From positions 1 to 34,471 of the forward strand of contig MEDY01000321.1 of NCBI GenBank assembly GCA_001724265.1: DNA of 34,471 nt. Direction: 5' to 3'. The DNA is from Rhizaria sp. SCN 62-66. Its lineage: Eukaryota. The notes below the pieces were generated by a model. That model did no database searches. It saw only the letters and a list, made by a program, of their open reading frames with translations, and had not been told where the DNA came from. Numbering within the stretch: position 1 is the stretch's first letter; every line of letters starts with the position of its first letter. The position numbers and the translations under genes are program-made. Below are positions 399-29,778 of the stretch, piece by piece.

Positions 399-431
399 AC
401 TTAGACGGCGCGCCTACGTACTTAGACGGCG
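399..431. repeat. 12-bp direct repeat (acttagacggcg at 399-410 and 420-431) duplicating the nuclease stop-codon context
   Basis: Exact match at a period of 21 nt, read directly from the sequence. Confidence 0.8.
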
Positions 432-2000: not shown

Positions 2001-2696
2001 GTTACTCTGTTGGGTGCACAGGAGAACGATTATATTGTGAGAGTAAACGCGCGAGAAGTGAGCCAAAGTGGTCAGGAATGACGGCATGTTCGACTGAAAT
2101 AGCAGATGGTGAATACGGCACTATATTCAGCACATAACACATCTGAAAAGCAAGGGTAGACTCCCCTAGTCATATATACTCCTATGCAAAACATGAAACG
2201 ACATAATAACGACGAGAAGGAGCACAGTTTGTCCTGTAAGTGGGACCAGCGACGTCACTATGCCGACAGACTAGCAGAGAGAGCAGGGCTGTGAGACTAA
2301 AAGGATTACTATTTCGGGGTGAGGTCGCAGTTTTGTGATGCAGATGCATGGGACATGGAACGGGCCCCAAGGTCTGCACGTAAATGACCCCATGCAATTA
2401 CCGTATCTTGTTTTGGTCTTTTGGTTGGTATTGTGGCTTCACGGCCTCAGTGTTGCATATCAATCGCACCTAGAAGTCTCGTCCCAGACTGTTTGTCTCA
2501 CCATAAAGGAGAGCTGCGACCAAAGTTCTCGTTTTTCATCGCGTGATGTCGCAGAAACGAAACACTGAGTTGATATATGATATAATGATATCTATAATAT
2601 TAGAAACCCGTGTTTATATGCTTGAATGCGATGTTCTCATCTCATTACTCTTCATGCCGCGACCTCTCCTGAATCGTTGTGAAGCCCGACACGCGA

Positions 2697-4935
2697 ATGT
2701 CGTCACCGCTGCCGCCCGGCTGGTAGACGCGCAAGGACGACTGGGGCCGCGACTTCTACATTGACCACAACACCGGCACCACGCACTGGCAGCCCCCGAC
2801 CGGGTCTACGTCAGCGGCCAAGCCTGACGCGCCTCCCGCCTACGGCGAGCAGTCGCCGCCGCCGCAGCCGCCCCAGGCTGCTCCTTACCCGTCGTCGCAG
2901 TCCTACGGCCCGCCCCCGCAGTCGCCACAGCCGATGCCGCAGCCGCAGTTTGCGTCGTCCCCGGCGATGGTGGGCTACGCGCCGATGCCGGGCGCCGTGT
3001 CGAACATGGGCGTCGTGATGGGGATCCCCGTCGTCATGTCGAGCCTGCCGCCCGCGGCCACACTGCCCGCCGAGGTTATGTACGCCAACGGCGCCGCGTG
3101 CCCCGAGTTCGACGCCATGGCCTCGCACAGCACGGCCTCTGCGCAGCCGATGGTGAACCCGAACTCGGCGTTTGACGCGCTGCACTTCTGCTGCAGCTCG
3201 ATGCCCTGCTCCTTCGTCATCTCGCTCATCCTGCTCGGGCTGCTCATCGTACTCATCTACTGCGCCAGCATGTACAACTCGATCCCCAGCGGCGACTTTA
3301 TCCGCCGCGGCGACTACCTGCCCGGCATTATTATCCCCGCCATGTTCGGTTTTATGATCTACCTCGTCAACTGCATCACCAACCTGGCGCAGCTCAGCTG
3401 CTGCCCGCTCTGCATCGCGCCCTCGGCCTCGCTCAAGCGCGGCGCCTTCCACACGGCCGCGGGCGCCACGACGCCCATGGGCGGCACCTCGGGCGACGTT
3501 ACCCACGCCTCCAACGCCACCGCGGGCCACCGCGCCAGCAGTAGCTTCTGCGTCATGCCCGCCGTGTTCCGCTCGGCCTACTTCACTGAGCGCGCGAGTA
3601 TGGACGACGTCGTGGCGCACTTCGACCGCATGCGCGTCGCGCCCGTCAAGCTCTCAATCAAGGTCAAGTGCGGCCACCGCGTCCGCAGGCGCAAGCACAG
3701 CCACTACGTTGTCACATACAGGTACGCACTCACGCGCTTCGTTTTGAGCAAGCATTAATGGATATTGTTAGTACAGTATTGTTCAAGCATTATTCCGCGC
3801 TATCTTAACTGTTTGTGACATACATGGACGCAAAAAAATGTATCATGATATGCCCGTGTTAAATTTACTTCTTTCTTGTTTATTTTCGTTTTCGTTGCCT
3901 TTGCTTTGTTTTGCTTCCTACGTCTGCGCCCGGCCTCGTCATAGCGCCGACATCCCGTACACGATCACGGCCGCGCGCGACACGTCGCACTCGTCGCAGG
4001 CGCTGCGCGACGCGGCGAACCAGGTCTTTGGAAACGCCTTCCTGGCCGAGTTTGACTCGGGCTACGAGCCGACGCCGGAGAGCGCGCGCGTGATCGACGC
4101 TCTGCGCGCGCACTACGAGAGTAAGTACGCCGGCATGGACACCGACGTCAACGTGTGGACCGAGTACGCCACCGGCGTCGTGCCAGAGGTCGCCTCCGTG
4201 TTCGTGCAAAAGGTACGCATCATCTCTATTCATCTGCAGTCAAGAAACTCTCCCAGCGATCTCGATCGCAATCCCGACATCTCTCACAATTCTTCGATTC
4301 CTCGTTTGTTCTCTCTGCTGCATGCTCTATCCGCACAGGACCAGGGCCTGCCGTGCGTGCACGAGTGCGTGACGTCGCCACTGTGCGTGTGCTGCTCGAT
4401 CCTGCTGGCGTGCTTCCCCTGCTACCTCTGCTTCTGGCGCTGGTGCACTCCTTCGCTGACCGTGCGGTCTCGCAAGCACCTGGTGGTGTCGCCGCAGATC
4501 AACGCGCCCAACGTCAACATCGGCTCCGTGGGCACCACGCTGCCGGGCTTCTCCAGCTCGCTCCCGCCCGGCCAGACGGGCCAGCCCACGCACGTGCTCG
4601 TCGTGCCACAGGGCTCCGCGCTGCAGGGCTCGCCCGTGGGCCAGGGCCAGTACGTGTCCGTGTCGGCGGGGCAGTACGCCGTCGCGCAGCCGTCGCCGCA
4701 GCAGCAGTACGCGACCGCGCCCGTGCTTGTGCCGCAGCAGCACGTGTATCCGCAGCAGGGACAGCAGCAGCAGCAGCAGGGGTATGCCAGTCTGCAGACG
4801 CCGCAGCAGCATTACCACCAAATGCAGCCGCAGCAGCAGCCGCAGGTACAACAGCAGGGGCCGCCGAGCTACGTGCCGCCGCCGTCGTCGCCGCAGCAGC
4901 AGCAGCAGCAGTTCTATCCGCCGCCGCCCAAGTAA
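2697..4935 (+). CDS. WW-domain, TMEM151-like membrane protein with Pro/Gln-rich tails; exons 2697-3721, 3945-4212, 4339-4935; 629 aa if the in-frame TAG at 2724-2726 is read as sense
   Basis: ATG at 2697 gives [33 protein letters not shown], a complete WW signature in frame with ORF 2934-3758. Two TM helices (FVISLILLGLLIVLIYC, IIIPAMFGFMIYLVNC). The segment FDRMRVAPVKLSIKVKCGHRVRRRK...ARDTS recalls the TMEM151 family (from memory). Cys-rich hydrophobic segment and a Gln/Pro-rich C-terminus. Stop is TAA. Confidence 0.82.
3722..3944 (+). other. spliceosomal intron (223 nt, phase 2)
   Basis: AG|GTACGC ... T-rich ... CATAG|C. Restores the frame between ORFs 2934-3758 and 3838-4935. Confidence 0.85.
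4213..4338 (+). other. spliceosomal intron (126 nt, phase 0, no in-frame stop)
   Basis: AAG|GTACGC ... C/T-rich ... CACAG|GAC. Abrupt drop in GC and codon bias relative to the flanks. Confidence 0.8.
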
Positions 4936-6126
4936 GCGGCTCTCGCCCATCGGCCAATGAGAGTTATATCCCTAGTAACCGGTAAGCTTATTCTTTAACA
5001 ACGCCGACCTCATCACAAACACTGTAACCATTGGTTACAGAGCTTGGGGCCCGCCAGTCGCCAGAACTAATATATTCTTTTTAATGTCATCTAGGACAGT
5101 CCTATCTTAATATTAGTTTTGTCTTTTGAAAATAAACAGCAGCTGTACTTGCTTTACGCTTCGAAATGATTTTACACGAAGGGTACTTTTCGTAATGGTT
5201 AGGCAGCCAGGGTAACTGCTGCCATAATAAAGATACCCTGAGAGCTAAACTGGAACAAGTGTATTGGTATGGTCACATCTCGTCTTCTGAGACAGCCAGA
5301 CTATTTTATTGGTCCAGCTGCACTTAGTCCAAGAAATGGCTCGATTTGGTCGACATCACGGACAAACTTTGAAGAGTGTGATGAGCATCATGAAAATCAG
5401 CAACAAGAACAGAAGCGAGAGCGAAAACAAAAGCAAGAACAGCAGTCAGAAGGGGAGTAGGAGCAAGAGAAGCCGCAGGAGCACGAGTAAACGATGAAGA
5501 CTGCATGACCAAAGCGAAGGTGACTCCGCAAATAGCACAGAACGTGTGTCATCATCCACTATCTACGTTCCTATTAATATTAATTTCCAAGCTATGTATC
5601 TACCACATATATGTGTTCCTCCTTTCATATTCATTCGTGTTTTGTGCCGCTAAATTTGTTTGAAAAGTTACTCTATTGTAAAAATACTGGTTCATCTCTC
5701 TAATAGAACAATGTCGGATACTAAGAATACGTACACAGACTAGAAATATTCATCTTCCCGAACTTAAAACAAACAATTGATGACCATTTGAAATATTTAT
5801 ACGTAGTAAGTAAGTGTTGTGAGGGAAACGCGATGGTTCTCACGACTCATGCTCATGTGAACATCGCGGCACAACAACATTTGGCCTTGACACAGATCGA
5901 AATGAAATTTACTTCGGACACACAGCAGTGCCAAAAGACAATAGTATCGACGAGAACTGATTATCTTACTGAGGCCTGCTTGTCTCACCGCATGATCCTT
6001 CTCCAAGCGCCACGACACAAAAACGTGAAACAATTCGGTGTTGCTCAAATATGTGTGTGATCCATACAACGACACCGATCGGGGGGCATCACGACACCAA
6101 CATCCAATGCAGTCGCGTCAGTGCTT

Positions 6127-9100
6127 TCACACGCCGACAAAGGCCGCGGCCACAGCAACGGCGGCGGCGAGCGCGAGTGCGGCGGTGGTCGCGTGCGCAG
6201 GCGCTGCGTTGTCGCGCGAGGAGACGCAGAGGCGGTGCGTGCAGTAGCCGGAGCCGCAGTCCGAGTCGGAGAAGCACATGTCGCCGACGGCGCATGCAAA
6301 ACAGGTGTTGCCGCAGTCAACGTCGGCCTCGTTCGAGTCGCGCTCGCCGTTGAAGCAGAGCTCGTCGTAGTCGCGGTAACCGCTGTAGGTGGTGGTGGTG
6401 GTACTCTTGACGATGCCGGAGATCTCGCTCTCGAGCACCGAGAGGCGCGTCTCGAGCGCGACCGACAGCGCGTCGCGCGAGGTGGCGCCTGTGCCCAGCA
6501 GCGCGACCGAGAGGACGACGCGGCCCGTCTTAGCGGAGAACTGGTGCGACGACAGGTGCGTCGTGAAGGTCACGCCTGTGAGCCGCAGCGGGTACAGACT
6601 TAGGATGGTCTTGACCTGGCCCTCGAGCAGCGCCGCGGTGGCCGCGAAGGTCGTCTCGTGCGTAATATAAAGCGTCAACCGCGGGCCCGTGATACCGGCG
6701 TATGCGCCCTGTGATGTCTCGATGAGCGTGTAGCCCGAGGCTGCATAGACGGCGATGCGGCGCGCCGAGTCAGCGGCCTGGCGGGCCGGGTAGATGACGT
6801 TGTCGCAGTAGAGCACGTAACTGTCAGCATCGCTGTCTGTGCGCACGGCTGTGGTGACGGGGACCGTGATGACGGACCCGGTGACGACGCTGCCGACCGT
6901 CACCAGCTCGTGCGTGGCCACAGCGATCATGACGGGCAGCGCCGAGCTGGCGTCCGGGTCGGCGTCAGGGTCGGACGTGACGTCCGCGGTGACATTGCCC
7001 AGCTCGTTAAAGAAGAGACGGCACTTGGTCGACAGCAGGTCCGTAGCGACGGTGAGGAACTCGCCAGGCAGCGAGAAGACAAAGCGCGAGCCCAGCGGGA
7101 GCGTGAGCTGCGAGTTGAGTCCGTCGAGCAGCACGGTCACGTTGGCCAGCCCGTCGGGGCCGCCGGGCGTGACGACCGTCTGCAGCGTGAGTTCGGAACT
7201 CGTTATCGCGGGCACGGGCTGCGACAGCACGAGGTTGTCCGCGTTGGCGGCGACCAGGCCCGGCGCAATGGCGCTCGCGCGGTAGGCGCGGACCGTCAGC
7301 GTGGGGGACTCGATCAGCAGCGAGTCGGACAGAGTGAAGTAGCCGTCGCGACGGCAGACCAGCTCGAGCGTGTCGAAGCGGTTCAGCGCAAAGGTGAGCA
7401 CGAACGAGAAGTATGAGATCTCAACAGAGCCGTCGGACAGTGCGTCAAGAATATAAGGGCGCTCCAGAGCAACGGTCTGGTTGTTGGCCTGTCGGAGAAA
7501 TAAAAATAAAGATAGAAGTAGAAAGCAAAGATGATGTGAGTGAGAAAGTAGCTTAACCACAACAGCGAAAAAAATTGTCAAAAATAAAGCACACATGTCG
7601 AACAAGAGATGTGCTTGTTCCCATCGCGATTGTACTCATTGAGTCACGTACCTTACAGTCGATGCTGATGGCTTCCGCGGCGGTGGCGTCGGCGGCCACG
7701 ACCATACGCGGCGGCAGCTCGATCAGCATCGAGTCTCCGGCAAGCAGGTCCGTGTTGGGGCCCTCGACCAGGAGGCGCAGCGCGGCCTTGGTGGTGCCGT
7801 AGGTGAAGGCGTCGGTCAGCGGCACGGATGGGTCGCGGATGAGCGCGAGCGTGACACCGACCTCATCGGTGGCGCGCGGAAACGGCACCGCGGGCGTGGC
7901 CGTGGTGAAGCCCATCGGCGCGGCCGCCACGGGGCTCGTGTTGGAGCCGTAGTAGGTGGAGACTGTGAGCCCCGAGCGCGAGTTGACGTGCGTGAAGCCG
8001 AGGTCGCCGAACCCCACGACAGGCTCCTGCGACAGCGTGATGTCGCACGCGAGCGTGATGTTGGCCGTGATTGAGTAGGAAATGACGCCGACGGGCTCGA
8101 CGCGCACTGTCTGGGTCGCCGACGCCGGGTTCGTCGTCACCGTCACGGCCTCAGCGTCAGCCATGACGTCGTTGTACCAGAAGGTGCAGCGGCCGCCGTT
8201 GGGGGGCACGCGCGCCTGCGCGGGCAGGTCGAAAATAAGGTACTCGGATGTCTGCGACAGCGAGGCCTGGTACGGCGCGAAGGAGATCTGCAGCGACGCC
8301 TCGGAGCCCGTGTACGGAAGATCGTAGAGGAACTGGCGGGAGAGGCCGCCGTAGTCGCTGGTGGTGATCATCGAGTACGAACCGAAGGCGGCCTGCGAGT
8401 CGGCTGACACGCGCACAAGCGTGTCAAACGACACGGCCGCGGCGGCCGCCAGTGAGGACGGCGCGCGGAAGGGCGAGATGGTGACGATGCGCGCAGTGAG
8501 TGCGTCATCGGGCAGGACGAGCGTGCACTGGAACGTGTAGGCCGTGTTGAAGGCGTAGGACGACTCGTGCTGCAGCTGCACGAAAAAGGACGAATGCGTC
8601 AGCACGAGCGTGGCGAGCGTGGTGACACCGTAGGTGCAGACGAGCCCCTTGGAGAGCAGCGAGAGGTCAAACTGCGTCGGCAGCTGCACGCGCAACGCGA
8701 CCGTGCTGTCGATGTAGACGTTGGCCGAGGACAGCGAGAAGTCGACCTTGGTGCTGAACGAGCTCAGCCCCGTGGAGGCGAGCACGGTGTTGAGCGCGAC
8801 GGTGCCCGTCTGCACCTCCGGGGCCGCGATCTGCGTGCGCCACACGGCGTTGCCGTCGCTGTTGTAGACCGTGAAGGCGACCAGGTCCGACGGCGAGTAG
8901 GCGATGGTGCGCGAGCGCAGGCCGGTGCACGACAGGCGCAGGATCGGGGGCAGCGTGGTGAGCTTGATCGAATACCGCGCGACCGAAACCTGCCCCGTGC
9001 CGTCCTGCTTCGACACCGGCTGCGCCTCGGCGGTCGTCGTGGGCACTGGTGCGTCCGTCTCGGTGGCCGTGCTGCGGGCGTAGAGCGCGCACTGCAGCGT

Positions 9101-10986
9101 CGCGTACTGCTCCGACACGGGCAGCGAGAAGGCCAGCACGTTGCCGACGACGTTGGCGATGTTGGCCGGCAGCGCGGCGGCGATCTGCAGCGTCGTGAGG
9201 TCTGAGCCCGCGGCCGGGTTGGGCGGCGTCAAGGTCACCGTGCGCGGCGCAGACGCGTCACCGGTGCCGAAGGACGACGACAGCGCGGGCATGGCCACGG
9301 ACGCGCGCGCGACGGCAACCCACGCGGCGGCGGCGTCGGGCGACGTGTTGTTGTTGTACACAGTGAGCACTGCGGTGAGGTCCGTGGGAAGGTAGGCCGG
9401 CATGACAAGGTTGGTGCACACGAGCTGCAGCGGCGTGGCCGCGGTCCACCCCGTCGTCGGCAGGTCGAACTGCCAGGCGTTGGTCTCGAGCGCTGACGCC
9501 GTGGTCGCAATGCCGACCTGCGCGGACGACGCCAGCGCAACCGTGCACGCGGGCGTGGCGCCCAGCGCGAACGCGGTCGGCAGCCGCAGGACCACGCGCG
9601 CGGTGGCCGTGGCCGACGTTGTGGGCGGTGCCACGCCGAGCGGGGTCACCGTGAGCGACATGGTGCTCGACGCTGTGACGGGCACAAGCGTGTTGCTAAG
9701 CGAGATGGCGAGCGTGTCCGCGCCGAGCGTGGGCGGCGCCGCGATGGCGAAGCGCACGGCGTCGATGACGGCGAAAGCGCGCGCGCCGCCGTCGCCGAGG
9801 TAGAGCCCCAGCTCGAAGGTGCGGCGCGGCAGCGAGGTCGCGATGGCAGGTGGCGTGACGCCGGGGCAGGTGATAACGAGCCGCGCCGAGGCCAACACAT
9901 GCGTATCAAAATCGAGCCTGACCGTGGGCATGGTCGAGCTGGACGAGACGAGGCGAGCGGTGCCCGTGACAGTGAGCGCGCTCGTGGCGAGGTTGCGCGT
10001 CGCGACGGTGCACGGCGTGTCCGTCGTTGAAGGGAAGGTCCAGGCGGCGGCGTCGTCCATGACGAAGTACGCGTTCGAGGCTTCGCCGAGCGGGAAGAGC
10101 GAGGCCGTGCCGGCGGTGTTAAGGACGGAGAACTCAAGCACGAGCGAACCCGGGACGCCGGCAACGCCCGCGTTGTGCGACATCTGCGGCACCGACGCGA
10201 TGACCTGCATCACGGGCGGGAAGATGAGCGCGCCCAGCGTTGTGGTGATGGCCGCCGTGTCGCGCAGCACGCGCGGCGAGATGTACATGGCCGCGATGGG
10301 CGAGAGCGGGTACGGCGCCGAGCATTGCAGTGACAGCGTCGCCGACAGCGTCGTCACGTCCGTCAGCGGGAGCGCCCAGCCGCCCGTCTCCGCCGTCACG
10401 GTGAGCGTAATGCGGTACTCGGTGCCCGTGGTCGAGGTCTGCACCGTGGGGATGGCCGCGCCATTCCACAGCAGCGCACACGCCGTAGTCGAGTCGGACA
10501 GCGCGGACGGCAGCAGAAAGTCGATCTCGTCGTTGGTGCGGAACGCAACGCCGCGGTTCGAGGCGGGGAAAGCCCAGGTCACGGTAACACGCGTGGTGCC
10601 CGAGGGTGCGGTGGCGTAGAGGTTGACCGGGGAAGTTGTGCGGACGACTTTGCTCATGTGCATGGGGCCGAAGTCGGGCAGCGCGGAAACGAGCGCGAAC
10701 GACGACAGCGACAGCAGCACGGCCGACATGAGGGCCACAACCGCCGCCATCTGCGCAGAAGCGGCACGCGCAGGAAGGGGGAAAGATGGTATGAGGTCAT
10801 GTCATGGTTAGAGTGTGAACAATAAGCGATACAGTTGTCAGGGCGGTGGATAGAGAGAGCGAAATGGGAGCACTTCAAATACGGTTGCGAGGAAAATACA
10901 ATGTGTACAAATGGCGGTATACGGCGGGGATATGACGTGATACGTACGGAAGCGGAGGACCGCAAGAAACTTGCGCTCCCTCGCAT
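6127..10986 (-). CDS. large secreted, probably GPI-anchored surface protein with ~8 degenerate two-Cys beta-rich repeats and a C-terminal Cys-rich module; exons 10986-10948 (tentative), 10750-7652, 7488-6127; ~1499 aa
   Basis: Signal peptide MAAVVALMSAVLLSLSSFALVSA. Thr/Ser/Val/Ala-rich repeats. Cys module CFNGERDSNEADVDCGNTCFACAVGDMCFSDSDCGSGYCTHRLC. Ends in small residues then a hydrophobic tail (DNAA...AALALAAAVAVAAAFVGV) with no cytosolic segment. Stop is TGA. The start could alternatively be the ATG at 10750. Confidence 0.85.
7489..7651 (-). other. spliceosomal intron (163 nt, phase 0)
   Basis: AAG|GTACGT ... long T/C tract ... GACAG|GCC. Joins ORFs 7553-10750 and 6127-7605. Confidence 0.88.
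10751..10947 (-). other. spliceosomal intron (197 nt) immediately before ATG 10750
   Basis: TCC|GTACGT ... TCTAAC ... CGCAG|ATG. An upstream ATG at 10986 gives 13 in-frame codons (MRGSASFLRSSAS). Confidence 0.65.
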
Positions 10987-11718
10987 GTGAAGGGGGGCTG
11001 TTTGAAGGAAAAAAAACAAAGTATGAGAGTCAAGGCAGGCGTAAGAGTGGGCGATTCAAAGGAGAAGAAAGAGGACGTTTGAACAAAAACGAAATGACGG
11101 CAGAGCACATCCAGTTAAACACGAGTATCGCTGGAATTTAGATATAGGTAAAATAGTAAACCAAATAATTTCATGGTTGGTATAATGTCCCGCTAGACGG
11201 AGACTGAACTGCATATGTTGCTCATGCAGACACACTTTGCACGGGCGGTTCGCCACACATCGACACACGACTGCTTTTTTCGGTACCCGCACAGATTTTG
11301 ACAGCAGTCAGTCAGATCGCAGTATTCATCGCGTGTATCATCCACATGTTTGTGAAACAATATAAATGTATTTGTTTAGAAATATATAGAAGCAGAATAG
11401 GATATTACGCGGAAAATCGCAGAAGCGCGCTTTTCATTCAAGTCGCGGGCGGGCCAAATAGGCCGTGATCACAGTAACAAACGGGACAAGCAGTGTCGCG
11501 CCAAGTCACACGAACGGGGAAACGGCGCTTTGGGGGGGGAAAAATCATTTGCATAGAGAGTGCACACTGGGGTGCGATACATGAGAGTTTCGACAGAGCA
11601 AAATGAACAACGGCAAGCGACGAAGCTCGGCAGCCTCATAGGTTCCCGAAGATGGAGTCGAGCTGTTGTTCGTGGATATACAGTGTTAGAAAGAATTGCT
11701 ATTTTAGGAGAATCTGAC

Positions 11719-12704
11719 TTAGTTGCTCAGGCTGAGGTACTCCTTGACGACGGAGATCATACTCTTGGAGCCGTCAGCAAGGCGCACGGTGCCACCGTTG
11801 CCCGAGATCAGCTCCTCGATGCCGTTGTCACTGCTGCGAGCAGGCGCATCGGGCGCGGCGCGCTGTAACAAATATAGAGTGGGAACACAACAACAAGGTT
11901 AAAAGAATGACACGTGTTAGGCTCATATTCAGACATGATTAAACAACAAAAAGCACAATAACTCAAACAAAAATGCAAAGATAGCAAAGGCACGCGACTC
12001 TTCTCGTACGAACTACAATAAGAGACTATTCGCCGACGTACGAGACCGGACGAGTCCGAGTTGTTGCGGTGGCCGACCCAGTCGAGCTCCATGAACTTAG
12101 CGACCGTGGCGACATCGATGGGCATCACACGGCCCAGGATGCCGCACGAGCAGCAGAAGGTGATGACGCTAAGGCAGCAGTTGGCGATGCACTCCCCGGG
12201 CCGAGAGTCGGGGCGCGAGGCGCCGCTGAGCACACCTGGCCGCACAAGCAACGCCTGCTCGAAGCCCAGTCCGCGCACGATCGCCTCGGTCTCGCCCTTG
12301 GTGCGGATGTACAGGTTCGAGCTCGCCGCGTCGGCGCCAACGGAGGAGACGAGCGCGAAGTACCGCACGCCCTTGGCCTTAGCGGCGTGCGCCAGGTCGG
12401 ACACGAACGTGTGGTCGACGGCGCGGAAACGCTCCTCGGAGCCCGCGGCCTTGATCGTGGTGCCCACGCAGCAGAAGACAGCGTCGACGTCGGTGGGAAA
12501 GCGCGCAAAGTCGTCGGCGTTGTTGCCGGTGAGGAAGACCTCGGTGACGCGGTCGCGCAGCTCCGCGGGGAGCGCGTTCTTGACAGCCGAGTCGCGGCGG
12601 GTGAAGGCGTACACCTTGGCCACGTCATCCCCGCGGGACGCCAGCGCAAGAACGGTCTTCTGGCCGATGGCGCCAGTGGCGCCGGCGACAAGAACGGTGG
12701 ACAT
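11719..12704 (-). CDS. TIP30/HTATIP2(CC3)-like atypical NAD(P)-binding SDR oxidoreductase; exons 12704-12042, 11862-11719; 268 aa
   Basis: Rossmann motif VLVAGATGAIG. Family-like motifs VFCCVGTTIKAAGSEERFRAVDH, SSVGADAASSNLYIRTKGETE (YxxxK) and RPGVL. The spliced last exon reads RAAPDAP...KEYLSLSN then TAA. Confidence 0.88.
11863..12041 (-). other. spliceosomal intron (179 nt, phase 0)
   Basis: CTC|GTACGT ... CCTAAC ... TACAG|CGC. AT-rich between GC-rich exons. Confidence 0.85.
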
Positions 12705-13535
12705 TGTTGAGGTTAGGGAAAACTGCGGCAGGAGAAAAGGTGATCGTCACACAGAGAGGAAGAATGGGGGGATTGGTGGTGAGGCGAGATCTTCGTTCTG
12801 CATCGGAGATATAGATTTTCTAGATGGTACAGCGTATTACATCAGGCGTCTACAGCGTTATCGTTACGTAAAATGTAAACTATTGCCGATGTGCGGGTCT
12901 GAACATGATATGAACTTTTTGTTACTGAAGAAATGAAGCTTCCGACAATTTGGTGGCTCAGTTCTTGGTGGGTGCCCAGGCTTCCTTCTACACTATCTCA
13001 ACCACCGTAAATACGCACCAGCATACGTGCAATGCAATAGACATAAGTTTAAAAATCAATTTTAATGTAGAAACACAAGTTTTCAACGCAGAACACGGTA
13101 GTCTCTTCATTGATCTATCCTCCAATTCGGGACGACCCCCCCCATCCCCACCATCTGCAGTGTCCATCCCCGAGACGCAGAAAAAGCTGTTTGTGGCTGT
13201 GCGTGATTTCATGAGATATGTTTCCATAAAACGCATTATCTTGGGTTCATTCAACAATATAAATTAGCGCCGCTTTTTATTACTACATATATACGTTGTA
13301 TTGTTGTGTTGCAGACAAACAACACTATGCGTGAAATCCTGACAGAGCTGCATGCAATCAAGTGCGATGCATTCTCTCATCGTAAGGATACTTCAACATA
13401 AAAATATGGCGCTGAAGAAAAATACAGTAACTTCTATGTACAAATAAGCTAAATAAGTGTCATATTATCTCTTCATTTTATGTGACCATCATTAACCGAC
13501 ATATATCTTATCGACAGTAAAGCATTATGTTAGGC

Positions 13536-16500
13536 TTACATCATATCCTTAAAGGACTTGCCGCGCTTGCCATTAGTCCGATCCCATGACGTTTTCGGTG
13601 TCGCTAAGCCCGCCTCCGCACCAGTAGGCAGCGCCCCTGTCTTCGAAACCGCAAAGGGGTTTGTATACTTTGCCTTAAGAGCGGTGCTGATGGGAAGCTT
13701 CGTTTCTTCGTTAATTGCAGTGCTCAAGCGCGCATTCAGGCCGAAGAGACGGGATAGCTTGCTCGGGACATTTCCACCGCTCGCAGTCGTGATGCTGTCA
13801 GTCTTGCTCTCTAAAACATGCGCACTGCGGCTCTCGTTACTCTGTGCAGTTGCACTCGCACTGCTGCTAATAGTCGAGCTACTTTTGCTGCTGCTCTCCG
13901 TGGTTGTCTTGCTGATGTGGTCTTTGAAAACGTCTTCGTCATGCAAACTCTGGAACGCACCCGCACCTGTCAGCATCTTGATCGGCGTAGTCGTTGTCGC
14001 TGCCGCTGCGACCTTGCGACTGCTGCTCTTGATCTTGCCCTCAGCAGCGGCAGCAGCAGAGGCAGGCTTGACCACAGGCGTGAGATTGCCAAGCAGAGTC
14101 GTTTGCACGCCCGCCAGCCCCATCGCAGCGCCCGTCTTGAAGATGTTGGCGCCACCCGCCACCACCAGCCCGCGCGCGCGCTCTTTGACACTATCCCGCG
14201 CCCCCAACGCCTCTGCCGCAGCCGCGGCCGACGGCTGAGCGACGGGCGCCGCGGCAGCGCGCTTGCGACGCACGGTCGTCTTGTTGTTCGCCGCACCTGT
14301 CGCGAGCACGGCGAACGACGACGGCACCACGGCGTGCGTGTTCATAAATCCGTGGCCGGGCGCCAGACCGCCGAGGCTCGCTGAAGCCGAGGCCAGCGAC
14401 GCGCGCAGGCCGGACAGCATGCGCGGGGCTGCGGGAACTGCGGGTCCGGTATGGCGACCGTTGTCATGGTCGTTGTCGCCATGGTCGTCGTCTACGCAGT
14501 CGAGGTCGCGGTCACGGTCGTCGTCTTGCATGTCGTTCGCGTCGATGTAGTTGTCATCACTATGAGCGTTGCGGCGGCTCGTCACGTGCGAGTTGAACCC
14601 GAGCGCGCGCATGCGCGCTGCGTAATCGGCCGAAATGAATGCGTCATCATCGAACTCGTTCGCAGCAGATGATGCGCCCGCACCATCGCTACTAAGGCGG
14701 GCGCGTTTCGGATTAAAGCCTGACGCGGTGCGGCCGTACATGTCAGCGTCATTGTCGCTGGCGTCGAGATCACGGTCGTCGTCGTAACTCTTAGCCTCAT
14801 TACTGCTGCTCTTCTGGCCGCTGCCGCCAAGCATTTGAGCAACCATGTCTTCGACGGTGAGAGTTGCCGCTGTTGTAGGCGCCACAGGAGCAGCCACGTC
14901 AATGTCTGCATGTGCGTCGAGGGTGCCCTGCTGTGTAAACGTGCCCGAAAGCATACTGTACGGAACTTGATGATTAGAAATGGGGTTTCTATAGCTAGGA
15001 TCGTGTTGATCCAAATCGTCACCGTACTCGTCGTCATCATGATCTTCGTGGTCTCCAGCGTTCGTCGACGCAGTTGCTCTGCTGTCATCAAAAGAGTCGG
15101 TAGCAGGCTTAGCCATATCGTTATTCTCGTTAACGTTGTTGCCATCAGGAAGACCTTTTGCAAGTGCTTCGGCGTCATCAACCGAGTCGGCGTTTTGATC
15201 AACCGAAGTACTTTCATCGCTACCCATAAAGCGAGTGATTAGCGCCAACGCTTTGCCATAATCAATCTCCATCGCGAGAGCAGAAGCCTTTCGACCATCA
15301 ACAGAGTCACCGCTCGCATCGACTTCGTTTTCGTTGTTAGTAAAACTCTTCTGGCTGCTGGTGCCGTTGATAATGTTGGCGGTGGCCGCGGGATTAAGGT
15401 CTTCCAACCGATCCGACTCGCTCTTCGGCTTCGCACTCTCGTCGCTATTTTCGTGGGTGCTGCTCATTCTATCTGTGGCTGCTAAACTGTCTAATGTTGC
15501 AGCTGCAGTCAGCGGCGGCGTTGCACCAGGCTCAGTCTTTATCAACGCATGAGAGTTGGACGATGCAGGGCGCTGTGGGGTGCGCTGTGGTGCATGCTGC
15601 GTTGCGTACTGTGTCGGTGCAAAGTGGCCCCGCTGCGATAAACCCTGAAGGTCATCGTGATCGTACTGGCTCCAGTTGCGAGCAGCGCTGCCGCTGTCAG
15701 AACTGCTACCAGCAGCACGGGCAGCAGCAGGCGTTCCTGACCGACTCGCGCCCTGACCAGCACTCGACGCAATGATCGGCCTCGTCGTCCTTCCTTGTGT
15801 CGGCGGTGTCTTAGTCGGTGTCGCGGTTGTCGAACTCTTCTGCGGCGTCGAACGCGCTGGTGAACGGTTGGTAGTTGCGCTCTGCGCTACACGCCGAGTT
15901 GCAGTCACTTCTTCTTCCATCATCTCCGTCAGCCACGTGAGCGACGCACCTTTGTTTGCGTCAACTCCATTACTCACATCAGCTTCGCTGTAATCATTAT
16001 CGTCGCCTGCCACAATCATATTGTGTTCCGCTAAGCTCGTGCTGCTATGCTTACTGTCGCTGTTCTTGTGCGTGTGCTTACTCGTGTGCTCGTCATCACG
16101 CCTATATGCAAATGAACGCAGAGCCTGGAGCGCCAGCCTGGGGTCAAGGTCGCTGCGCGGCACCGTCGCAGCCGCAACATCGTCGCGGTCATCGATGTGG
16201 CACAAACGGGCAATATGGTGAGCACTCTCTTGGGTGAGAGCAAACGCGCGCACACGTTCCGTTGCCCCAGGGGAAAGAGAGCCGTTTGATAACAAGGCAG
16301 CGGTGTCGGCGTCTGATAGAACGACACCCGGCTGCTGTAATGTTGCGGGAACACCAGGTACGAGGGCCGCCGCAGATTGCAAGCGCAAGAGCAGAATGGG
16401 ACGATAGTATGCATTGTCGTGTTTCGTAAGCCATGCAACAAACGCATCCGCAGCCTCTGCAGGCTTCAATTCGCGCTGCTGTTGCAGTTGCTCAGTGTCA

Positions 16501-19500
16501 AGACTAAGATCAGTGCGCCGACGATCATTGCGACTACGATCTTTGAGCGCGCGGTCACTGATATCGAGATCACCGGGCTCGTTGCCACCCGAGATCCAAG
16601 CGCGGTGCAGTGCAGCCTCTTGTTGCTCCGTGTTTAATGCGGCACCGCTTGCATCCGCGCTGTGGCTGGCACTACTATCGCTGCTGTTTGACACATTGTG
16701 GCCGTCACTTGCGTTATTGTTGTTGACGCTGTTGCGCTGAGCTGAAGCAAGCGTGCGTTTGTGTTCGCGCGCGCGGCGCCGGGTCTGACGTCCTTCCCAC
16801 TCGCGCACACACGCAATCGCGGCGGCAGCAGCAGCGGCAACGCTCATGCCGCCACTTGCTGCACCTGCTGGCGCGGCGCCCTCGTCGCCGTCACCGTCGG
16901 GCGCTGCCGTACCACTGTTTGACGCCGGCGCGCTGAAGCTAAAACCTCCGGCGCTACTGCCATTACTGTGACCGTTGTAGCTGCTTGTTGAAACGCCGAG
17001 AAGATCAAGCAGTTGTTTTGAGGCGGCGAGCTCGTCCTCACGCGCCCATACAGCCTCGGCAGCAAGAACTGCAGCCGCACGCGCAAGCATCCCACGCACG
17101 CACGATGTCGCGGCGCCAAGAGTAAGCCCCGTGGGCGCAACCGAAAACGGTGCTGCTGCAGTCACGCACTGTGCAATGAGTGGAGATTCAGATTCACGCG
17201 TAGATCCCGCCAAGACTACCGCGGAAGCAGATGTAGAGTTAGCCGTATCAGTACTCAGACGCGTGTTAAAAGAGAATCGCATGCGCTGCAGTGCAGGGTT
17301 CTGTGCGCGCACTCGTGCAGCCCTGGCCAACGCTAGCACAACTGTGGGGGCGCAGAAGTCGCTGGGGCCCTGCAACACCTTGTCAGTGCCGCATAACACA
17401 GGAAATGTCGTCAGTGCACCAGGTCTTGAGCTTGCACTCCTCTTGCTCGGCTTGCGGGAGCTCTTATTCGCAGTCACATCGTGGTGCTCCAAAAACGCGA
17501 CTGCGGCGGCCACGGCGGCGTCTGCGTCTGCTTCAGCTAGCACAGCAGAGTCGCCGTCCTCAGCGAGGCCGGCAACGCGCGACAGCGTGCGTGCGGCGCC
17601 AGCGGCGGTGGCTGCGGTGGCGAGGCGTGCTTGGGCGGCAATAAGTGCAAACAGCACAGCCGCAGTTGGAGGCGCAAAGCTACCGGCAGCATGACCGGTG
17701 GTAGCGCTAGTGCTGCTGCGGCTTACAGTCGCACCAACAGGGCGAACAGTGATGACGGTGGTGTTGTCCGCACTTGTAGCGTCGGCCCAGTCAAAAGCGG
17801 TGGCTGCAGCGTTGCTGGTAGTGGCACCAGCGCTAAAACCTGAGTTCGAAGTCGCCGAGAAGGCAACGTTAGCGTTGCTGTCTCCTGATGACAGAGAGTA
17901 AAATGTGCTGCATTGCGCAACCGTAAGAAATGGAAGCAGCTCACGGACACAGACATCGGATGCCCGGAACAAGTCGCAACGACGAGACTCGTGGTAGCTC
18001 TGATGATGCCGTGTCAGCGGCCGCTGCGACAACGCGTAAGGCATCGGCAGATTGTTGTAGGAATGAAAGTAAACACGAGCACTGTGACCGGGAGTGCGAG
18101 TGCTACTCTGAGTGCCCGAGTGTCCGTGAGCATCAACGTGGCCGCGAGCACGCGGTGACGAGAACGTGCTGATTGCCTCACCAGTTTGCAGAATCGAGAA
18201 GGCGGAAGAAGCAACTGTAAGCAATGGCTGAACCCAACCCAGTGCGAGCGCAATGTCTGCTCCAGTAAGCGGCTCGAGTGGAATTCCTGCTTGTACACTC
18301 CCGCCACTATTGAAGCTGCTATTGACATTTCTACTGTTGTTTGTCGTCAGATGCAGAAGCACGCAAGCCGCGAGCTCAGCCTGAGTCCGCGCCTTAGCGC
18401 CCGCAGCCGTGGCAGCGGCGAGCTCTGCGGCCGTCGCAAGCTCAGCCTTGCTCGTGCTGACAGCAGTGCCGGTCGTGCGTCCGCTCAGCACGTCCGCAAC
18501 CGTGCTCGCGCTCTGCTGCTGCTGTCTGTCGCTGCTGCGCTGCGCGTGGCTCGCCAGGATGCGCAGCATCGGAAGCTCAAGAGGAATAAGCGACAGCGAC
18601 ACGCCACTCCCGGTAGCCACAACGCCAGGCCCCGCCTCGTGCGCACTCGTATTGGCGCCGCCCGCAGTGGCCGCGGTGGCAGTTGATGTAGGCAGCGCCA
18701 GCAGCTGCAGCAGCGCCTTGCTCACGCCAAGTCCTAACACCGGCGGCAGAGCCGGCGTGCTGTGAGCTTGATTATGAAAAGAGGCAGAAGCGGAGTGCGA
18801 CTGTTGTTGCTCTGCAGCGCGCCAGTTGGCAAGCGCCCTGCGCAACCTCTCTTCGCGCTCGCGCTCACGAGCATCCGCGTCTGCAACCGCGGCAGCAAAC
18901 GAAGCGAGCGCACCAGCAATGTCAAAGCGCCCCATAAACCCCCTCGGCATGTGCATGTTGAGCGTGCTTTTGACGTGCGACTCGGGGGACTCGAACCGCA
19001 CGCGCCAAGCCTGTGCCGCTGCAAGCGCCTCGTCCTCCCAACGCGGCTGTAGCAGCAGTGAGCGCGGACACATCGCGCCCAGCAGCAGCGGCAGCACAAA
19101 AGCCGGCGGAAGGGGCGGGCCCAAAAAGCACAAGTCGCGCCGTGAGATACGATAAGTCTTGCCAGAAACGGGCGGGCCACCTGGCGCGGGTGCGTGGCCG
19201 TAAACAGAGTGGTTGTGGGTCGATGCCGACGTAGACGGGGATGCAGACACGGATGCAGCGGCGCCGTGGGCAGTTACTCCCATGACTGCAAAAGCTGGTG
19301 TCGGAGCATGAGCAGACAGTGCGGAGTAGGAGTGCGAGACGAACGGCAGACATGCAGCTGCAGCGGCAACAGCCTTAGAGCCTAAGTCTGGTGCCCCCAC
19401 CCATGGCAAAGCAGCGCCACCGCTGTGTGTGCCATGCTCGGCAGCTGCACATGAGTCTGACGTGGTGCAGTGTGAATGGAGATGGTATGTGCGAGCGGAA

Positions 19501-22500
19501 GACGGGGGCACGGGGGGCGGCGCCGTCGTCCAGAGATCGGGCGGGGGCGCGAAGATAACCGTGGCAGGGAACAGCAAGGATGCGAGTGATACAAAGACAC
19601 TCTGATCATTGTCCGCGCTAACTGCGTTGTCTTCGCCGCAGCAGACGCAAGTCACTGTACGCACACCGCTGTCGTTTACCACGCTAGCTCCAGTAGAGCA
19701 GTCATGTGCAAGTAGTGACACGGCCGCAGCAACAAGGCCGACAGGCGGGACGCTGTCAGTGTCATTCTCGCCCTCACACTCATTGCCGCATTTCCTCTGC
19801 ATCGCGACCTCAGACAGAATGCTCCTAGCGCCGCGCTGCTCTGAGTTACGCACGACATCCGCGAGGAACTGCCACGGTATCGCAGCGCGGCGGCCCGCAG
19901 CCTTAGCAGGCGCAATAGGGCGACCACCGCGACTGGCACCGTCGACAGTTATACCAGCGCCACCACTCTTGTTCATGCCACTCTTAGCACGCGCACCATT
20001 ACTGCTGTTGCTGCCATTGTACAACAAAGCGTTATTGTTGTTAGCGCTGAAGCTGGCGCTCAGCAAGCTAGCGTTTGAGATCGAGTCAGTAGATGAAGTG
20101 TGAATTGCAGCGGCGCACTGTGGGCACACAGGCAACTCCGGCACATTCACGGCTGCAGGCGCAGCAGAAGCGGATGAACCGTCGCTCATCGCCAATGTTG
20201 CTGTCAATGCGTTGTCGCCCAGCAACGAGTCCACCGCTGCACCGTCAGTTGCATTCGCACTCGCAGATGAGCTGCTGTTGCCCGCGTGCGCTGCGTTACG
20301 AGCAGAAGCGGCATCTGGGTTCCGATTACGTGAGTGCACAAACGCGTGGTTGTGCATGCGCAACCGGTAGAAGTCAACCGCTTTCGCGGGGCCCAAGCGC
20401 GGGTCCAGCGGCGTAGACCGCGACTGGTCCCAGAACGCCGCGTCCAGCGGGTTCAGCGACGACCGCGGCGGCACGCGCGGCGCCGCAGTCGCCAGCGTGT
20501 CCCGCCAGCAGTGACCGTGAGCAGCGCCCGAAGAGCCCAGCCCGGTGGGAGTAAACGGGAAACGGGCGTCAAGGCGCGGTGGTGAAGGCATAGCGGGCGC
20601 GATCGTAAGCGCGGCCAGATCGCCGACCATCGAGTGGCGAAAACCAAGGCGTGCGCGCGCGAAGGCGGCCACAAAGTACGGTGAACGCGCGGACAGATAT
20701 GGCACGGTTGTCGCGGTGGCTGCAGCGCTCGCAGCAGCGGCTGCTGCAGCAGCAGCGTAATATGGCGACGGCTGCAGCGTCGCGGTCGCCACAGAAGCGT
20801 ACCCACCGTCAGAGAGAGCTGCAGAGTCCGTGCTTGTAGCAGATGCAGCCGCGGCCTTAGCTGCACGCGTGTGCGCGGCCTCAGCCTCCTCAGCAGCCTC
20901 AGTCGCGGCAATCACCGCGAGCACCTCCTCGCCCGAGCCCGTTTCCGTCTCCAGAAACATGCGCAGCGCGGTCTTGACGCCCATGCGCGGCAGGGACGGC
21001 AAGTAATCGCAGCCCGAGAGCAGACACACGTCGATAAAGCGCGAGCGCGAAGCCGACGCGAGCGCCAGCAGCGCGGAGAGGTCGTGGCGGGACACGGACG
21101 GCACTGCGGGCAGCGGCAGCGCCTGGGGCGGCGCGGGCAGCGCGGGCTGAGCGCGCGGAGCGGCGGGTGCCGCGGCAGGCTTCGTGGTCACTTCAGCCAC
21201 TGTAGTCGCTGATGTCACCGCCGCAACTGCAACAGCGGCGTTGTTGTTGTTGCTAATGCCGCTGGTCGTATTGCTATTGTAGCCATAGTCTTGCTCAATA
21301 TCTGAGTCCCCATCGATATGGATATCGGGCTGCAGCCGACTCACATCACCGCCGTTCGCAGCAATGACGCCGAACAGCGACAGAGACGACTATGATGATG
21401 ACGACGACGGCAGTGACAAAGACGCAGGAACTGCTGCGCTGTCGGCCTCCGTTTCCTTCCCTTTGGCGGCTTTGGGCTTGCGACCCCGCTTCGCCGCAGC
21501 AGGCTTCATTGACACAGCATCGTCGCCGTCGTCGCCGTCAACAATTGCCGTTGCAGTCGCTATTGCGCCCTTCTTCCTCGCGCTAACCTTGCTCGACGCA
21601 GCGTCAGTGCTATGGCTGTTGTTAGCACCGCGTTTCATCAGCAGTGCAAAGGCATTAGTCTGCGGCGTCACGAGCGCGGTTGAAGGGGAAGATGAATCAC
21701 CCACCGGAGTGCTGAAGTCGATCGTGACGGTGTCAGGCAGCGCGGGTGTTGGCAGACCGCTGCCGCTCGCGCCACTGGCACCGCGGCGACCACGGCCACT
21801 TGCGCCAGTTTGCGCTAGGAGAGAAAGCGTCGAGATGTCATCACCCTCATCGCCATCGTTGCAGTTGCTTGCATCGGCTGCAGCGGCGTCTGCTGTCACG
21901 GTCGCAATGACAGCGCGCACACGCGCCAACAACGCCGCGTCGCGTGCACTCGCGCTCCCGCTCGCGTCCCCAGCCTGCTTCTGCAGTGCGTGCGACTGCG
22001 GGTACAGCAATGACTGCGGCTGCGCCTGTGCTTCCGCGTGCGTGAGCGCAGCGATAACGTGCGCGGCCCACTCGCGGCGCCACTGCCGCAACAGCACGGC
22101 AAGCCCCGCGCGCGCGGCGGCGTCGTCACGGTGGAACCAGAACGCCGCCGCGTCGTCCGCGGCGCCCGTGTTGACGTTGAGGCACGACCAGTCGTTCTCA
22201 TCATCAGCATCACTGCTGGCGTCGCCGTTGCTCTCGCTGTTGTTGCCAAAGATGCTCGCGATGAAGGCGACGACGCCCTCGGCGACCGCGACGCCGTCCG
22301 CGCCCCTGATCGCGCCCGCGCTGCCGGTCGCGACGCCGCCGTTGGCGCCGATGTTGGCCTGCGACATCGCGTCGACCTCGAGAGAGCGCGCTGCGAACCG
22401 CGGCTGCCCGTCCACAAAGCTCAGCCCGCGCACATCGTCGGCAGCACCAGAGCTTGGTCCGGCGCTGGCGCTGCTGCTGCTGCTGCTCGATTTGCTGGTA

Positions 22501-24351
22501 TTGGTGGCTGCGGAAGCAGAGCGCTGCTTCGCGCCGGCGCCGCGCTTTGAGGCTGCGGCGGCAGCGATTGATGCTGCCGTTGCGGCTGCGGTCGCCGACG
22601 CCAGCGGCAGCAGCGTTTGCGCAGTGGCGGCGAGCTGCGCGAAGTCGAAGTCGGCGCTCATGCTGTTCACAGTCGCGAGAAGTGAGTTTGTGTGACTGTG
22701 ACTTCGAGCAGTGCTGCTGCTGTTCTTGTCATTGTGAAAAGCAGTGTCAGTGCGACGGTGAGATGGATCCTTGGCGACATCCCAAGAGTTGGCACTCCTG
22801 CTCTCAGTGATGTTACCGTCGTTTGAAGCTGTTCCGTCCTGCTCCGGAGTGTTATCGTCGTCAGGATGCGGCCACTCCTCGAGTGAGTCGTAGAACAAAG
22901 CGACTGTGAGAGCGCCCACGCTGCCGACCCACGGGCCTAACGCGCGCCCACAGTCACTCTCGTGCCCACTCAGCCGACTGGGATCAGGACTGTGGCCATG
23001 ACCGAGACTGGGAGTGTATGCGAGATGTGGGGCATGCGCCTGCAGCCATACGTGGCGGCGGCGCCACTCGAGCAGCGCCAGCACGGCCGTGCGCGTCTGC
23101 ACCATCAGACCGCTGCCGCCGGCCCGGTCAGCACTGCGCTGGGATGAGCTGCTCACATCGGAGTGACTGTGCGCGGCGGTGAGGCTGATGCCGGTGAGCG
23201 ACAGTGGCAGTGCGCAGTCGCTGCCGAGACCAAGTCCAGCGGCAACGTTAGACAGGAGCAACTGTGGCGACTGACGTTGCTGACGCTGAAGAATGCTATC
23301 GTCGTTATCGGCGTTATCACCGTTATCAGTCATCAACACAACTGCGTTGTGGTCACTGTCGTTGTCCGCGGCAGTGACAGCTGTGGAGGCAGGCGTGGAT
23401 GCGACAGCGAGCCTGATCGCAAGCGCAGACGCTTCCTTCGTAAGCCTGGGGAAGCCGTGGCCAGTGATGCCCGCCAGGACCCTTAGATCCGCAAGCACCC
23501 CCTTGGACACGTCGACCCACTCGCCCCAGCCGTCGCCGCTCACGCCCGCGGCGAACCCGGCGTTGCCGGCGCCGATGCCGCTGCTGCTGTTGCTGCTGTT
23601 GTTGAGCTTCAGCAGTAACCGCGCGCAGCCGAACGCGAGCAGGTCCGAATCCTCCGTGACGGCTGCGGCGACGAGCCCGCGGTGGTAGAGGGCCGCGATC
23701 TGCGCGTCCGCCTCGTAGGGCGCGACGAGCCACGGCACGCCCGCGCGCGACAGCAGGCGCTGGAACGCGCGAGAGAGCAGCCGCGTCGGGCGCAACGACC
23801 GCGCCAGCGCCGTTTCCGCCTCCGCGGCCGCCGCGGCAGCGCTCGCGGCCGAGGCCTGCCCAGTGCCGGCAGCGCCAGTAGCGGAGGCGGAAGACGCGAG
23901 CGCGAGGCCGTGCGCGATAAGCGTGCGGCGGCGGTCCGCGCGCGTGGCGGCAACGGCGTCCTTAAGCGGGGGCGACGCGCCGTCGAAAACGAGCACGGGC
24001 AGCACGCCGTTGTGGAGCAGAGTGTCGAGCAGCGACTGCAAGAAGCGCAGCGGGGCCAGCGTGGGGAAATCGAACGCCAGCTCCAGCGAGGCCGTATACA
24101 GCGAGCGGTACAGCCAGGCAGAGGCGTCCACAGCCACACGCTTGCCACGCAGCTCGCGCACGTGCATGCTGAGTTGAATAAGGAGCCGTTACGAGAAAGA
24201 ACATGAAATAAGAGTGTGTGAGTGAAGAATGGGGCAAGAGTTGTTGCTGAGACAGTGAAGTCCGGGAGGGCGACGTGAGATAGAGAATCAAAATGTGAAC
24301 GTACGGGCGCGTCGCGGGGCGCAAAACAGAGAGTAAACCTTTAACACCCAT
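13536..24351 (-). CDS. EXO1: exonuclease 1-like XPG/Rad2-family 5' nuclease, greatly expanded by low-complexity insertions; exons 24351-24305 and 24168-13536; 3559 aa if the in-frame TAG at 21392-21390 is read as sense
   Basis: Spliced N-terminus MGVKGLLSVLRPATRPMHVRELRGKRVAVDASAWLYR. Motifs VFDG, APYEADAQIAAL and TEDSDLLAFG lie before the TAG. The H3TH motif FIDVCLLSGCDYLPSLPRMGVKTA, then FARARLGFRHSMV and DLCFLGPPLP, lie after it. ORFs 21390-24167 and 13536-21344 share one frame and are separated only by that TAG. Stop is TAA. Confidence 0.85.
24169..24304 (-). other. spliceosomal intron (136 nt, phase 2)
   Basis: CC|GTACGT ... CTCAG|C. Joins MGVKGLL to the rest of the XPG-N domain. Confidence 0.9.

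Positions 24352-29708: not shown

Positions 29709-29778
<70 letters not shown>

Follow-up and report, generated by a model that had tools for sequence, protein, structure and literature searches.

The stretch of DNA analysed here (contig MEDY01000321.1, 34,471 nucleotides, referred to as the window) is a eukaryotic nuclear contig carrying nine recognisable genes (Table 1). Two of these genes are each interrupted by a single in-frame TAG. One encodes a WW-domain, PPxY-containing transmembrane protein and carries the codon called TAG1, and the other encodes a giant EXO1-like nuclease and carries TAG2. Across 13 exon pieces, the gene models add up to 8,769 codons in frame. In these codons TAG occurs twice, which corresponds to about one codon in 4,000 (0.02%), TAA and TGA do not occur at all, and no frameshift is present. 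The rarest sense codons, ATA and CGA, are used 6 and 7 times, and the codons for Glu and Gln 265 and 313 times. The third-position guanine-plus-cytosine (GC) content of the modelled genes is 0.78, and the introns and spacers are GC-poorer (0.38–0.50). An earlier inspection of the letters (the sequence-only reading) had noted one TAG in each of two intact genes, the great rarity of this codon and the lack of in-frame TAA or TGA, and had proposed that UAG is read as sense with Gln or Glu as its probable meaning. Its counts are all reproduced by the gene models.

The introns are short (114–223 nt). Their donors at 3722, 7651, 12041, 24304 and 26945 read GTACGC, GTACGT, GTACGT, GTACGT and GTTCGT, respectively. 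The consensus of these five donors, GT[A/T]CG[T/C], is unusual in having a C at +4. The intron of the NAD(P)-binding protein gene was confirmed by a cDNA contig in which the splice joint is seen.

TAG1 lies inside the WW domain. The ATG at 2697 is the only in-frame ATG upstream of this domain, and the Pfam WW profile (PF00397) matches residues 5–34, across the TAG, with both signature tryptophans present. With an undefined residue (X) at the TAG the match scores 28.7 bits (E-value 1.3e-6), and with glutamate 37.4 bits, both above the curated cut-off of 26.9 bits. When the first 10 codons are removed, only profile positions 14–31 are matched and the score is 25.1 bits. The sole orthologue lineage found consists of P0129 and P0130, two near-identical proteins with 43% identity to the window protein. 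They align gap-free across TAG1, have Glu at its position and share 24 of the 30 residues of the WW domain with the window. When different residues were placed at TAG1, the profile scores were 37.4 bits for E, 36.7 for K, 36.0 for Q, 35.9 for S, 34.4 for L, 32.8 for Y and 26.9 for W. These values point weakly to Glu over Lys, Gln and Ser as the meaning of TAG1. The Leu meaning of the rhizarian exLh gains no support at this site, being 3 bits below Glu. Of the two meanings first proposed, Glu is therefore the one that gains from the orthologue residue and the best profile score, and Gln is less favoured.

A PPxY motif (PPAY in the window, PPSY in the orthologue) lies 12 residues past the WW domain in the same protein (window 2697–2850). 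PPxY is the classic WW ligand, and its presence beside a WW domain in one protein is suggestive of self-binding or the formation of chains. Both elements are missed by gene callers that stop at TAG1. The TAA at 3756–3758 lies within the intron of this gene and is no gene end.

TAG2 lies between two halves of a nuclease core. The EXO1-like gene has about 3,559 codons. An insert of about 830 residues divides the core, and behind the core comes a tail of low complexity that is about 2,400 residues long. Upstream of TAG2, XPG_N (43.6 bits) and XPG_I (60.2 bits, profile positions 1–52 of 89) are recognised. About 90–150 residues downstream of TAG2, XPG_I resumes at positions 60–89 and is followed by the FEN1/EXO1 helix region. 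XPG_N, XPG_I and the helix motif are thus found in the order typical of the EXO1-like members of the Rad2/XPG family, with the core split by the insert. Homologues match both sides of TAG2 in the same order: P0138 at residues 2–191 (E-value 2e-31) and 1044–1084 (1e-7), and P0285 at residues 6–195 (1e-38) and 1025–1075 (3e-13). Among the listed non-self matches of the representative search, 147 of 148 show at least two matched stretches, the position of the second stretch having been checked for P0138 and P0285 only. The relative P0285 (1,320 residues), predicted as one continuous protein, also contains an insert at this point, about 380 residues long. Because this insert lies in one open frame, an insert at that point is a lineage trait and is translated. 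The immediate context of TAG2 is TCG TCG TCA TCA TCA TAG TCG TCT, and its simplest ancestor is TCG (Ser). The region around TAG2 is unalignable and gives no information on the meaning of the codon.

Open frames of 850 or 2,617 codons would arise by accident with a probability below 1e-12, so both TAGs lie within true coding frames. The claim that conserved domain sequence continues past each TAG is borne out at both sites. These results indicate that both TAGs are in coding sequence, and that neither the WW domain nor the EXO1-type nuclease core is complete unless this sequence is translated.

The interrupted genes recur exactly in other assemblies. The 925-residue fragment of the EXO1-like protein that ends at TAG2 was found exactly on 7 contigs, and the 274-residue fragment of the WW gene that starts at Met80, past TAG1, was likewise found exactly on 7 contigs, in both cases from JGI, Logan and ENA assemblies. 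A third fragment, of 2,602 residues and starting 16 codons past TAG2, was found on 4 contigs, and a variant of it differing in one residue on 2 contigs. Runs X1 to X3, with dates from 2015 to 2017, contain 0.97–1.00 of the sampled words. Since TAG-bounded fragments occur on 7 contigs of three collections, the TAGs are not assembly errors, and since the TAG-bearing contigs are near-identical (at most 1 residue in 2,602), they represent one strain. An uninterrupted full-length form was absent among the 4 homologue matches listed, the 7 short-fragment candidates and the best 150 of 5,173 representative matches. Both TAGs are real as DNA of one strain.

The stops of eight of the nine genes fall inside the window. 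After the introns were re-modelled, six of them are TAA, two are TGA and none is TAG, so the original tally holds. Under a standard code in which TAG makes up 10–25% of stops, the absence of TAG among eight stops has a probability of 0.10–0.43. Intergenic open reading frames longer than 58 codons were screened for extra genes ending in TAG, and none was coding-like (third-position GC at most 0.62 versus 0.78).

A slightly different strain is represented by X4, a run of another study, whose listed contigs each show 0 to 26 differences from the window (0.1–1.3% divergence). The listed pieces of X4 and of the polyA RNA run X5 all lie outside TAG1 and TAG2. In the frame past TAG2, at least 30 substitutions between X4 and the window are listed, and none of them makes a stop. 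Nine of the listed substitutions are synonymous and 21 non-synonymous, with 25% synonymous expected. Protein-level change past TAG2 is thus close to neutral, which fits a disordered tail or an untranslated tail alike. No insertion or deletion (indel) was found past TAG2 in frame, versus three in non-coding DNA (one at partial depth) beside 3–4 substitutions (Fisher p 0.003–0.005), so the reading frame itself is kept. This conservation of frame aids a reading in which the tail is translated only if X4 carries TAG2 too.

The differences of X4 are unevenly distributed. In the segment 14790–16837 its sequence departs from that of the window at 26 of 2,048 bases (1.3%), versus 0–0.4% in its other listed contigs. 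The changes in this segment are mostly at codon position 2, several of them at CpG (TCG/TTG, GCG/GTG, ACG/ATG). Three X4 variants, at 16102, 16221 and 16302, are also present in X5. Just past the stop of the WW gene, a 7-base deletion relative to the window (4975–4981) is common to X4 (DNA) and X5 (RNA), and a 3-base deletion (5051–5053) is present at partial depth in X4.

Four explanations that leave the genetic code of the host unchanged were weighed. Sequencing or assembly error at both sites is hardly credible: it has on its side the general caveat of a metagenome consensus at modest depth (5–20x), and base error had been a caveat of the sequence-only reading, but the exact fragments on 7 contigs come from three independent assembly collections and from runs of three years, and a probable source run is free of differences from the window over 2600..5276. 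It is very unlikely that the TAGs are spliced out and the gene models are in error. The candidate for such an event is an in-frame intron of 198 nt ending at TAG2 (AAG|GTTAGC ... CATAG|TCG, 21587..21390), which is exactly 66 codons long, is within the range of intron lengths seen here and has the same acceptor, CATAG, as the intron of the WW gene; a 65-codon stretch would be open by chance with a probability of 0.12. However, by codon usage it scores 0.345, a value that is typical of EXO1 exons (47th percentile of the EXO1 coding windows) and is reached neither by 258 intergenic windows (maximum 0.277) nor by off-frame windows, and the five known introns score between -0.70 and +0.08 in any frame. 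Its GC content is 0.605 versus 0.38–0.50 in the known introns, and its donor lacks the C at +4. Minus-strand GTACG donors were not found between 24304 and 20802, a test which the known GTTCGT donor makes incomplete on its own. The intron models for TAG2 were rejected on the codon-usage score. TAG1 admits no intron model, because the WW domain is colinear with its orthologue and gap-free across the TAG. Gene-specific recoding under the standard code, either by programmed read-through at both UAGs or by RNA editing to a sense codon, is unlikely as well. A contig from X6, a cDNA-containing run, covers 2694..3013 unspliced with two differences that are given without positions, and X6 shows one T>G and one T>A somewhere on the window, which would suit editing or a variant at 2724. 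No system of U-to-G editing is known. The contexts of the two codons, TAG-ACG-CGC and TAG-TCG-TCT, share nothing, and the CARYYA motif, which favours read-through when it follows UAG, is absent from both. Read-through normally yields minor extended forms, whereas the main product would be required here. In the protein collection, none of seven candidate proteins of 59–189 residues scored for a WW N-terminus with a sense residue, although recent runs are possibly outside this collection.

The explanation that competes seriously with a translated UAG is that the code is standard and that two nonsense mutations, one turning GAG and the other TCG into TAG, arose recently and were fixed in one clonal reactor strain. 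The WW gene would then be dead, or translated from Met80 with the WW domain and the PPxY motif missing, and the EXO1-like gene would be a very young pseudogene. We consider these two consequences, like the mutations themselves, a substantial possibility that falls somewhat short of an even chance and is about as probable as a translated UAG. At this codon usage, 1,208 of 1,927 one-step nonsense routes (63%) give TAG, which makes it the commonest nonsense outcome, and two random nonsense changes would both be TAG with a probability of 0.39 under plain mutation. That both interruptions are TAG is therefore not in itself significant. All 7 contigs with the TAG-bounded fragments represent one strain, the listed changes past TAG2 are near neutral, and the density of substitutions there (26 in 2,048 bases) is at least that of intergenic DNA. 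TAG1 is located at the extreme 5' end of its gene, where a downstream start could rescue expression. Against two nonsense mutations, such alleles in two of nine adjacent genes would have a likelihood of only about 0.1–1%, an estimate taken from ordinary loss-of-function rates rather than computed. No frameshift, TAA or TGA accompanies the two TAGs, and the genes are otherwise fully intact, with a WW domain still close to its orthologue and two nuclease-core halves that still match homologues. The 2,617 codons past TAG2 are free of stops and of indels relative to X4, and none of the eight gene ends is TAG.

The reading that we favour is that the host translates UAG rather than always terminating at it, with UAA and UGA remaining stops, and its probability is put at roughly 0.42. 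It most likely takes the form of a young, rarely used reassignment, or of a strong general suppression of UAG, inserting glutamate. From the observations above we infer the translation of the two TAGs, the inserted residue and its tRNA or eRF1 basis. UAG would already have been abandoned as a stop, which would be expected for a lineage that prefers UAA. It would be decoded by a tRNA with a CUA anticodon, most simply derived from tRNA-Glu(CUC), or alternatively by a near-cognate tRNA in combination with an eRF1 that is poor at recognising UAG. TAG codons could then arise through one-base changes from G to T. At TAG1, GAG would have become TAG at a conserved Glu without altering the protein, and at TAG2 the replacement of Ser by Glu, in a disordered insert rich in Ser, would have been nearly neutral. 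More tentatively, the host may be an uncultured, non-ciliate wastewater protist at the very start of a code change, in which UAG has been lost as terminator and is read as Glu, an intermediate of codon capture.

Several observations weigh against a translated UAG. The evidence base consists of two TAG sites only, and TAG is rarer than every sense codon (2 versus 6 for ATA). A reassignment at so low a usage (0.02% of codons) is a priori rare, with no case described, and the known UAG-only codes use the codon often. Both affected genes are possibly dispensable, and loss of EXO1 is tolerated in other organisms. The in-frame ATG at codon 80 of the WW gene is chosen as the start by gene callers, giving a protein of 274 residues (P0128), and TAG2 resembles a plain C-to-A hit in a run of TCG and TCA codons. 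The high frequency of TAG among nonsense outcomes and the excess of non-synonymous changes listed past TAG2 belong on the same side. Within the window, neither tRNA genes (ARAGORN) nor Rfam families were found, and eRF1 is not among its genes. The closest relative represented by a long contig terminates at TAG: in L003, 20.9 kb of a 332-kb contig whose 3-dehydrosphinganine reductase (KDSR) is 56% identical to that of the window, the neighbour of KDSR is a 1,933-codon gene (11576–17377, minus strand) that ends in TAG and whose protein has several zinc-finger-like motifs of the CCCH type. The 1,923 codons past its likely start are free of TAG. After its end TAG, two more TAGs follow within 35 codons, ahead of the first TAA, and three within 56 codons. 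One of about 7 apparent gene ends in L003 is TAG, and L003 and the window have no gene order in common around KDSR. As judged from these frames, TAG is a stop in L003, so the reassignment, if real, would be confined to the window's own narrow lineage. Such confinement would fit the low usage of TAG but lends no support. The KDSR of another contig (L002) is 65% identical, and that contig is too short to show its use of TAG.

Taken together, the evidence makes it possible to discard assembly error and, with a fair degree of confidence, splicing, and it does not separate a translated UAG from two nonsense alleles. The sequence-only reading was right that the TAGs are real and exonic and that none of eight genes ends in TAG, but two codons do not establish a code change. 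Its caveats were well placed, and that of base error has been removed by exact recurrence on 7 contigs.

Table 1. Genes of the window and elements of the two TAG-containing genes, in order along the contig.
Feature	Position	Strand	Description
S1/P1 nuclease gene		-	TAA stop 422..424
WW-domain / PPxY / transmembrane protein gene	2697..4935	+	TAA stop 4933-4935
WW gene exon 1	2697..3721	+	end inferred from AG|GTACGC and frame
TAG1	2724..2726	+	codon 10 of frame from ATG 2697; Glu position of LPxGWE
WW gene intron (inferred)	3722..3944	+	GTACGC...CATAG, 223 nt, GC 0.40
WW gene exon 2	3945..4935	+	ends at the TAA stop
Large surface-type protein gene	10801..6127	-	intron near 7651; TGA stop 6127..6129
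NAD(P)-binding protein gene		-	intron 12041..11863; TAA stop 11719..11721 once intron removed
Giant EXO1-like nuclease gene	13536..24351	-	TAA stop 13538-13536
EXO1-like exon 2	13536..24168	-	XPG_N, XPG_I first half, insert with TAG2, XPG_I second half and helix motif, tail; TAA
TAG2	21392-21390	-	codon 933 of 3,550-codon frame 24188..13536; sole interruption; Ser-codon run in XPG-I insert
EXO1-like intron 1 (inferred)	24169..24304	-	136 nt
EXO1-like exon 1	24305..24351	-	MGVKGLLSVLRPATRP; predicted splice CC|GTACGT...CTCAG|C, based on sequence and reading frame
Aph-1 gene	24810-25637	+	TGA stop 25635..25637
3-dehydrosphinganine reductase (KDSR-like) gene		-	TAA stop 25884..25886
Sft2/Got1-family gene		-	TAA stop 27571..27573
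Long low-complexity protein gene			1,763+ residues; extends past window end

Among the neighbouring genes, that for Aph-1, a gamma-secretase subunit, matches its profile with 76.8 bits over positions 1–222 of 231, and the matched part is apparently intronless. The long low-complexity gene contains a poly-Ala run of about 24 GCT codons (29710–29782, plus strand). This GCT run is the inverted-repeat partner of the CAG-rich end of the WW gene (4731–4864) and draws many foreign contigs in read mapping. Repeats that might be used as a probe for this organism were sought within the window, and those found were all low-complexity coding repeats. Paralogues of the surface-type protein were sought in viral contigs, where 6 pattern matches were obtained, none of them related.

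The bioreactor and wastewater metagenome runs X1 to X4 contain 0.83–1.00 of the sampled window words, and a polyA metatranscriptome 0.40. The best named match of KDSR is Guttulinopsis vulgaris (54–55%), followed by Entosiphon (46%), while the best named matches of the EXO1-like protein are MMETSP transcripts and a brown alga. The host is left unplaced because the named matches of these two genes disagree. In the KDSR alignment, the sequences closest to the window are 62–65% identical to it and are distinct from those most similar to Guttulinopsis. In a KDSR search of metagenome contigs (80 loci kept), the same organism was found only in L001 and L025, which are tiny and both within the span of the window. 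A KDSR search of prokaryote genome contigs for a mis-binned eukaryotic contig returned 71 loci, all of them bacterial short-chain dehydrogenases/reductases of at most 39% identity.

If UAG is read as Glu while UAA and UGA are stops, this would be a new code variant caught unusually early; a UAG=Glu code that keeps UAA as stop was not found in the literature searched. Reassignment of UAG nearly always goes along with that of UAA, the known UAG-only codes assign Leu or Gln, and a Glu meaning of UAG has so far been seen only alongside UAA=Lys in a ciliate, all of them at a mature stage with frequent use. An intermediate step of codon capture would then be on view, and the order of the tRNA and eRF1 changes would become testable. 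Gene callers using the standard code split or truncate such genes, and in the databases the product of the WW gene lacks its WW domain and that of the EXO1-like gene is divided into two proteins. If the two TAGs are plain nonsense alleles, the finding is an ordinary one, a clonal reactor strain without its EXO1-like nuclease.

The window resembles natural strains with ordinary premature-stop alleles in having single in-frame stops, one base from GAG or TCG, in otherwise intact genes. It differs from them in having two such stops in nine adjacent genes without a frameshift, TAA or TGA, and in its eight gene ends, which are never TAG. Among variant codes, that of the rhizarian exLh (Sainouroidea), as described by Panek et al. 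2017 (PMC5304391), assigns UAG to Leu and keeps UAA and UGA as stops, with 384 in-frame UAG in 71 genes and true stops that are UAA in 56 cases, UGA in 15 and never UAG. Like the window, exLh is a non-ciliate protist in which UAG is the only in-frame stop and genes end in UAA or UGA, and Guttulinopsis vulgaris, the best named KDSR match of the window, is described there as its closest relative with substantial sequence data. The KDSR and EXO1 matches do not by themselves demonstrate kinship of the window organism with exLh. UAG is far more frequent in exLh than in the window (2 in nine genes), and it means Leu there, in contrast to the one informative site here, which points to Glu. In Iotanema spirale (Fornicata), according to the same paper (PMC5304391), UAG is Gln and UAA a stop, and UAG makes up about 8% of Gln codons. 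This code is like the window in being UAG-only and of low usage, and unlike it in its Gln meaning, its unrelated lineage and a usage that is still far above that of the window. Phyllopharyngean ciliates (PMC11687900) read UAG as Leu or Gln with UAA as the preferred stop, and suppressor tRNA genes have been identified. They share with the window the reassignment of UAG alone, UAA as stop and a discovery from metagenomes, and differ in being ciliates, in widespread sense UAG, in their suppressor tRNA genes and in the residues inserted. The ciliate Oligohymenophorea sp. PL0344 (PMC10553269) reads UAG as Glu via suppressor tRNAs and UAA as Lys, with UGA as stop. It is unlike the window in being a ciliate and in having reassigned UAA, the main stop of the window (6 of 8), and it shows that UAG=Glu is biochemically feasible.

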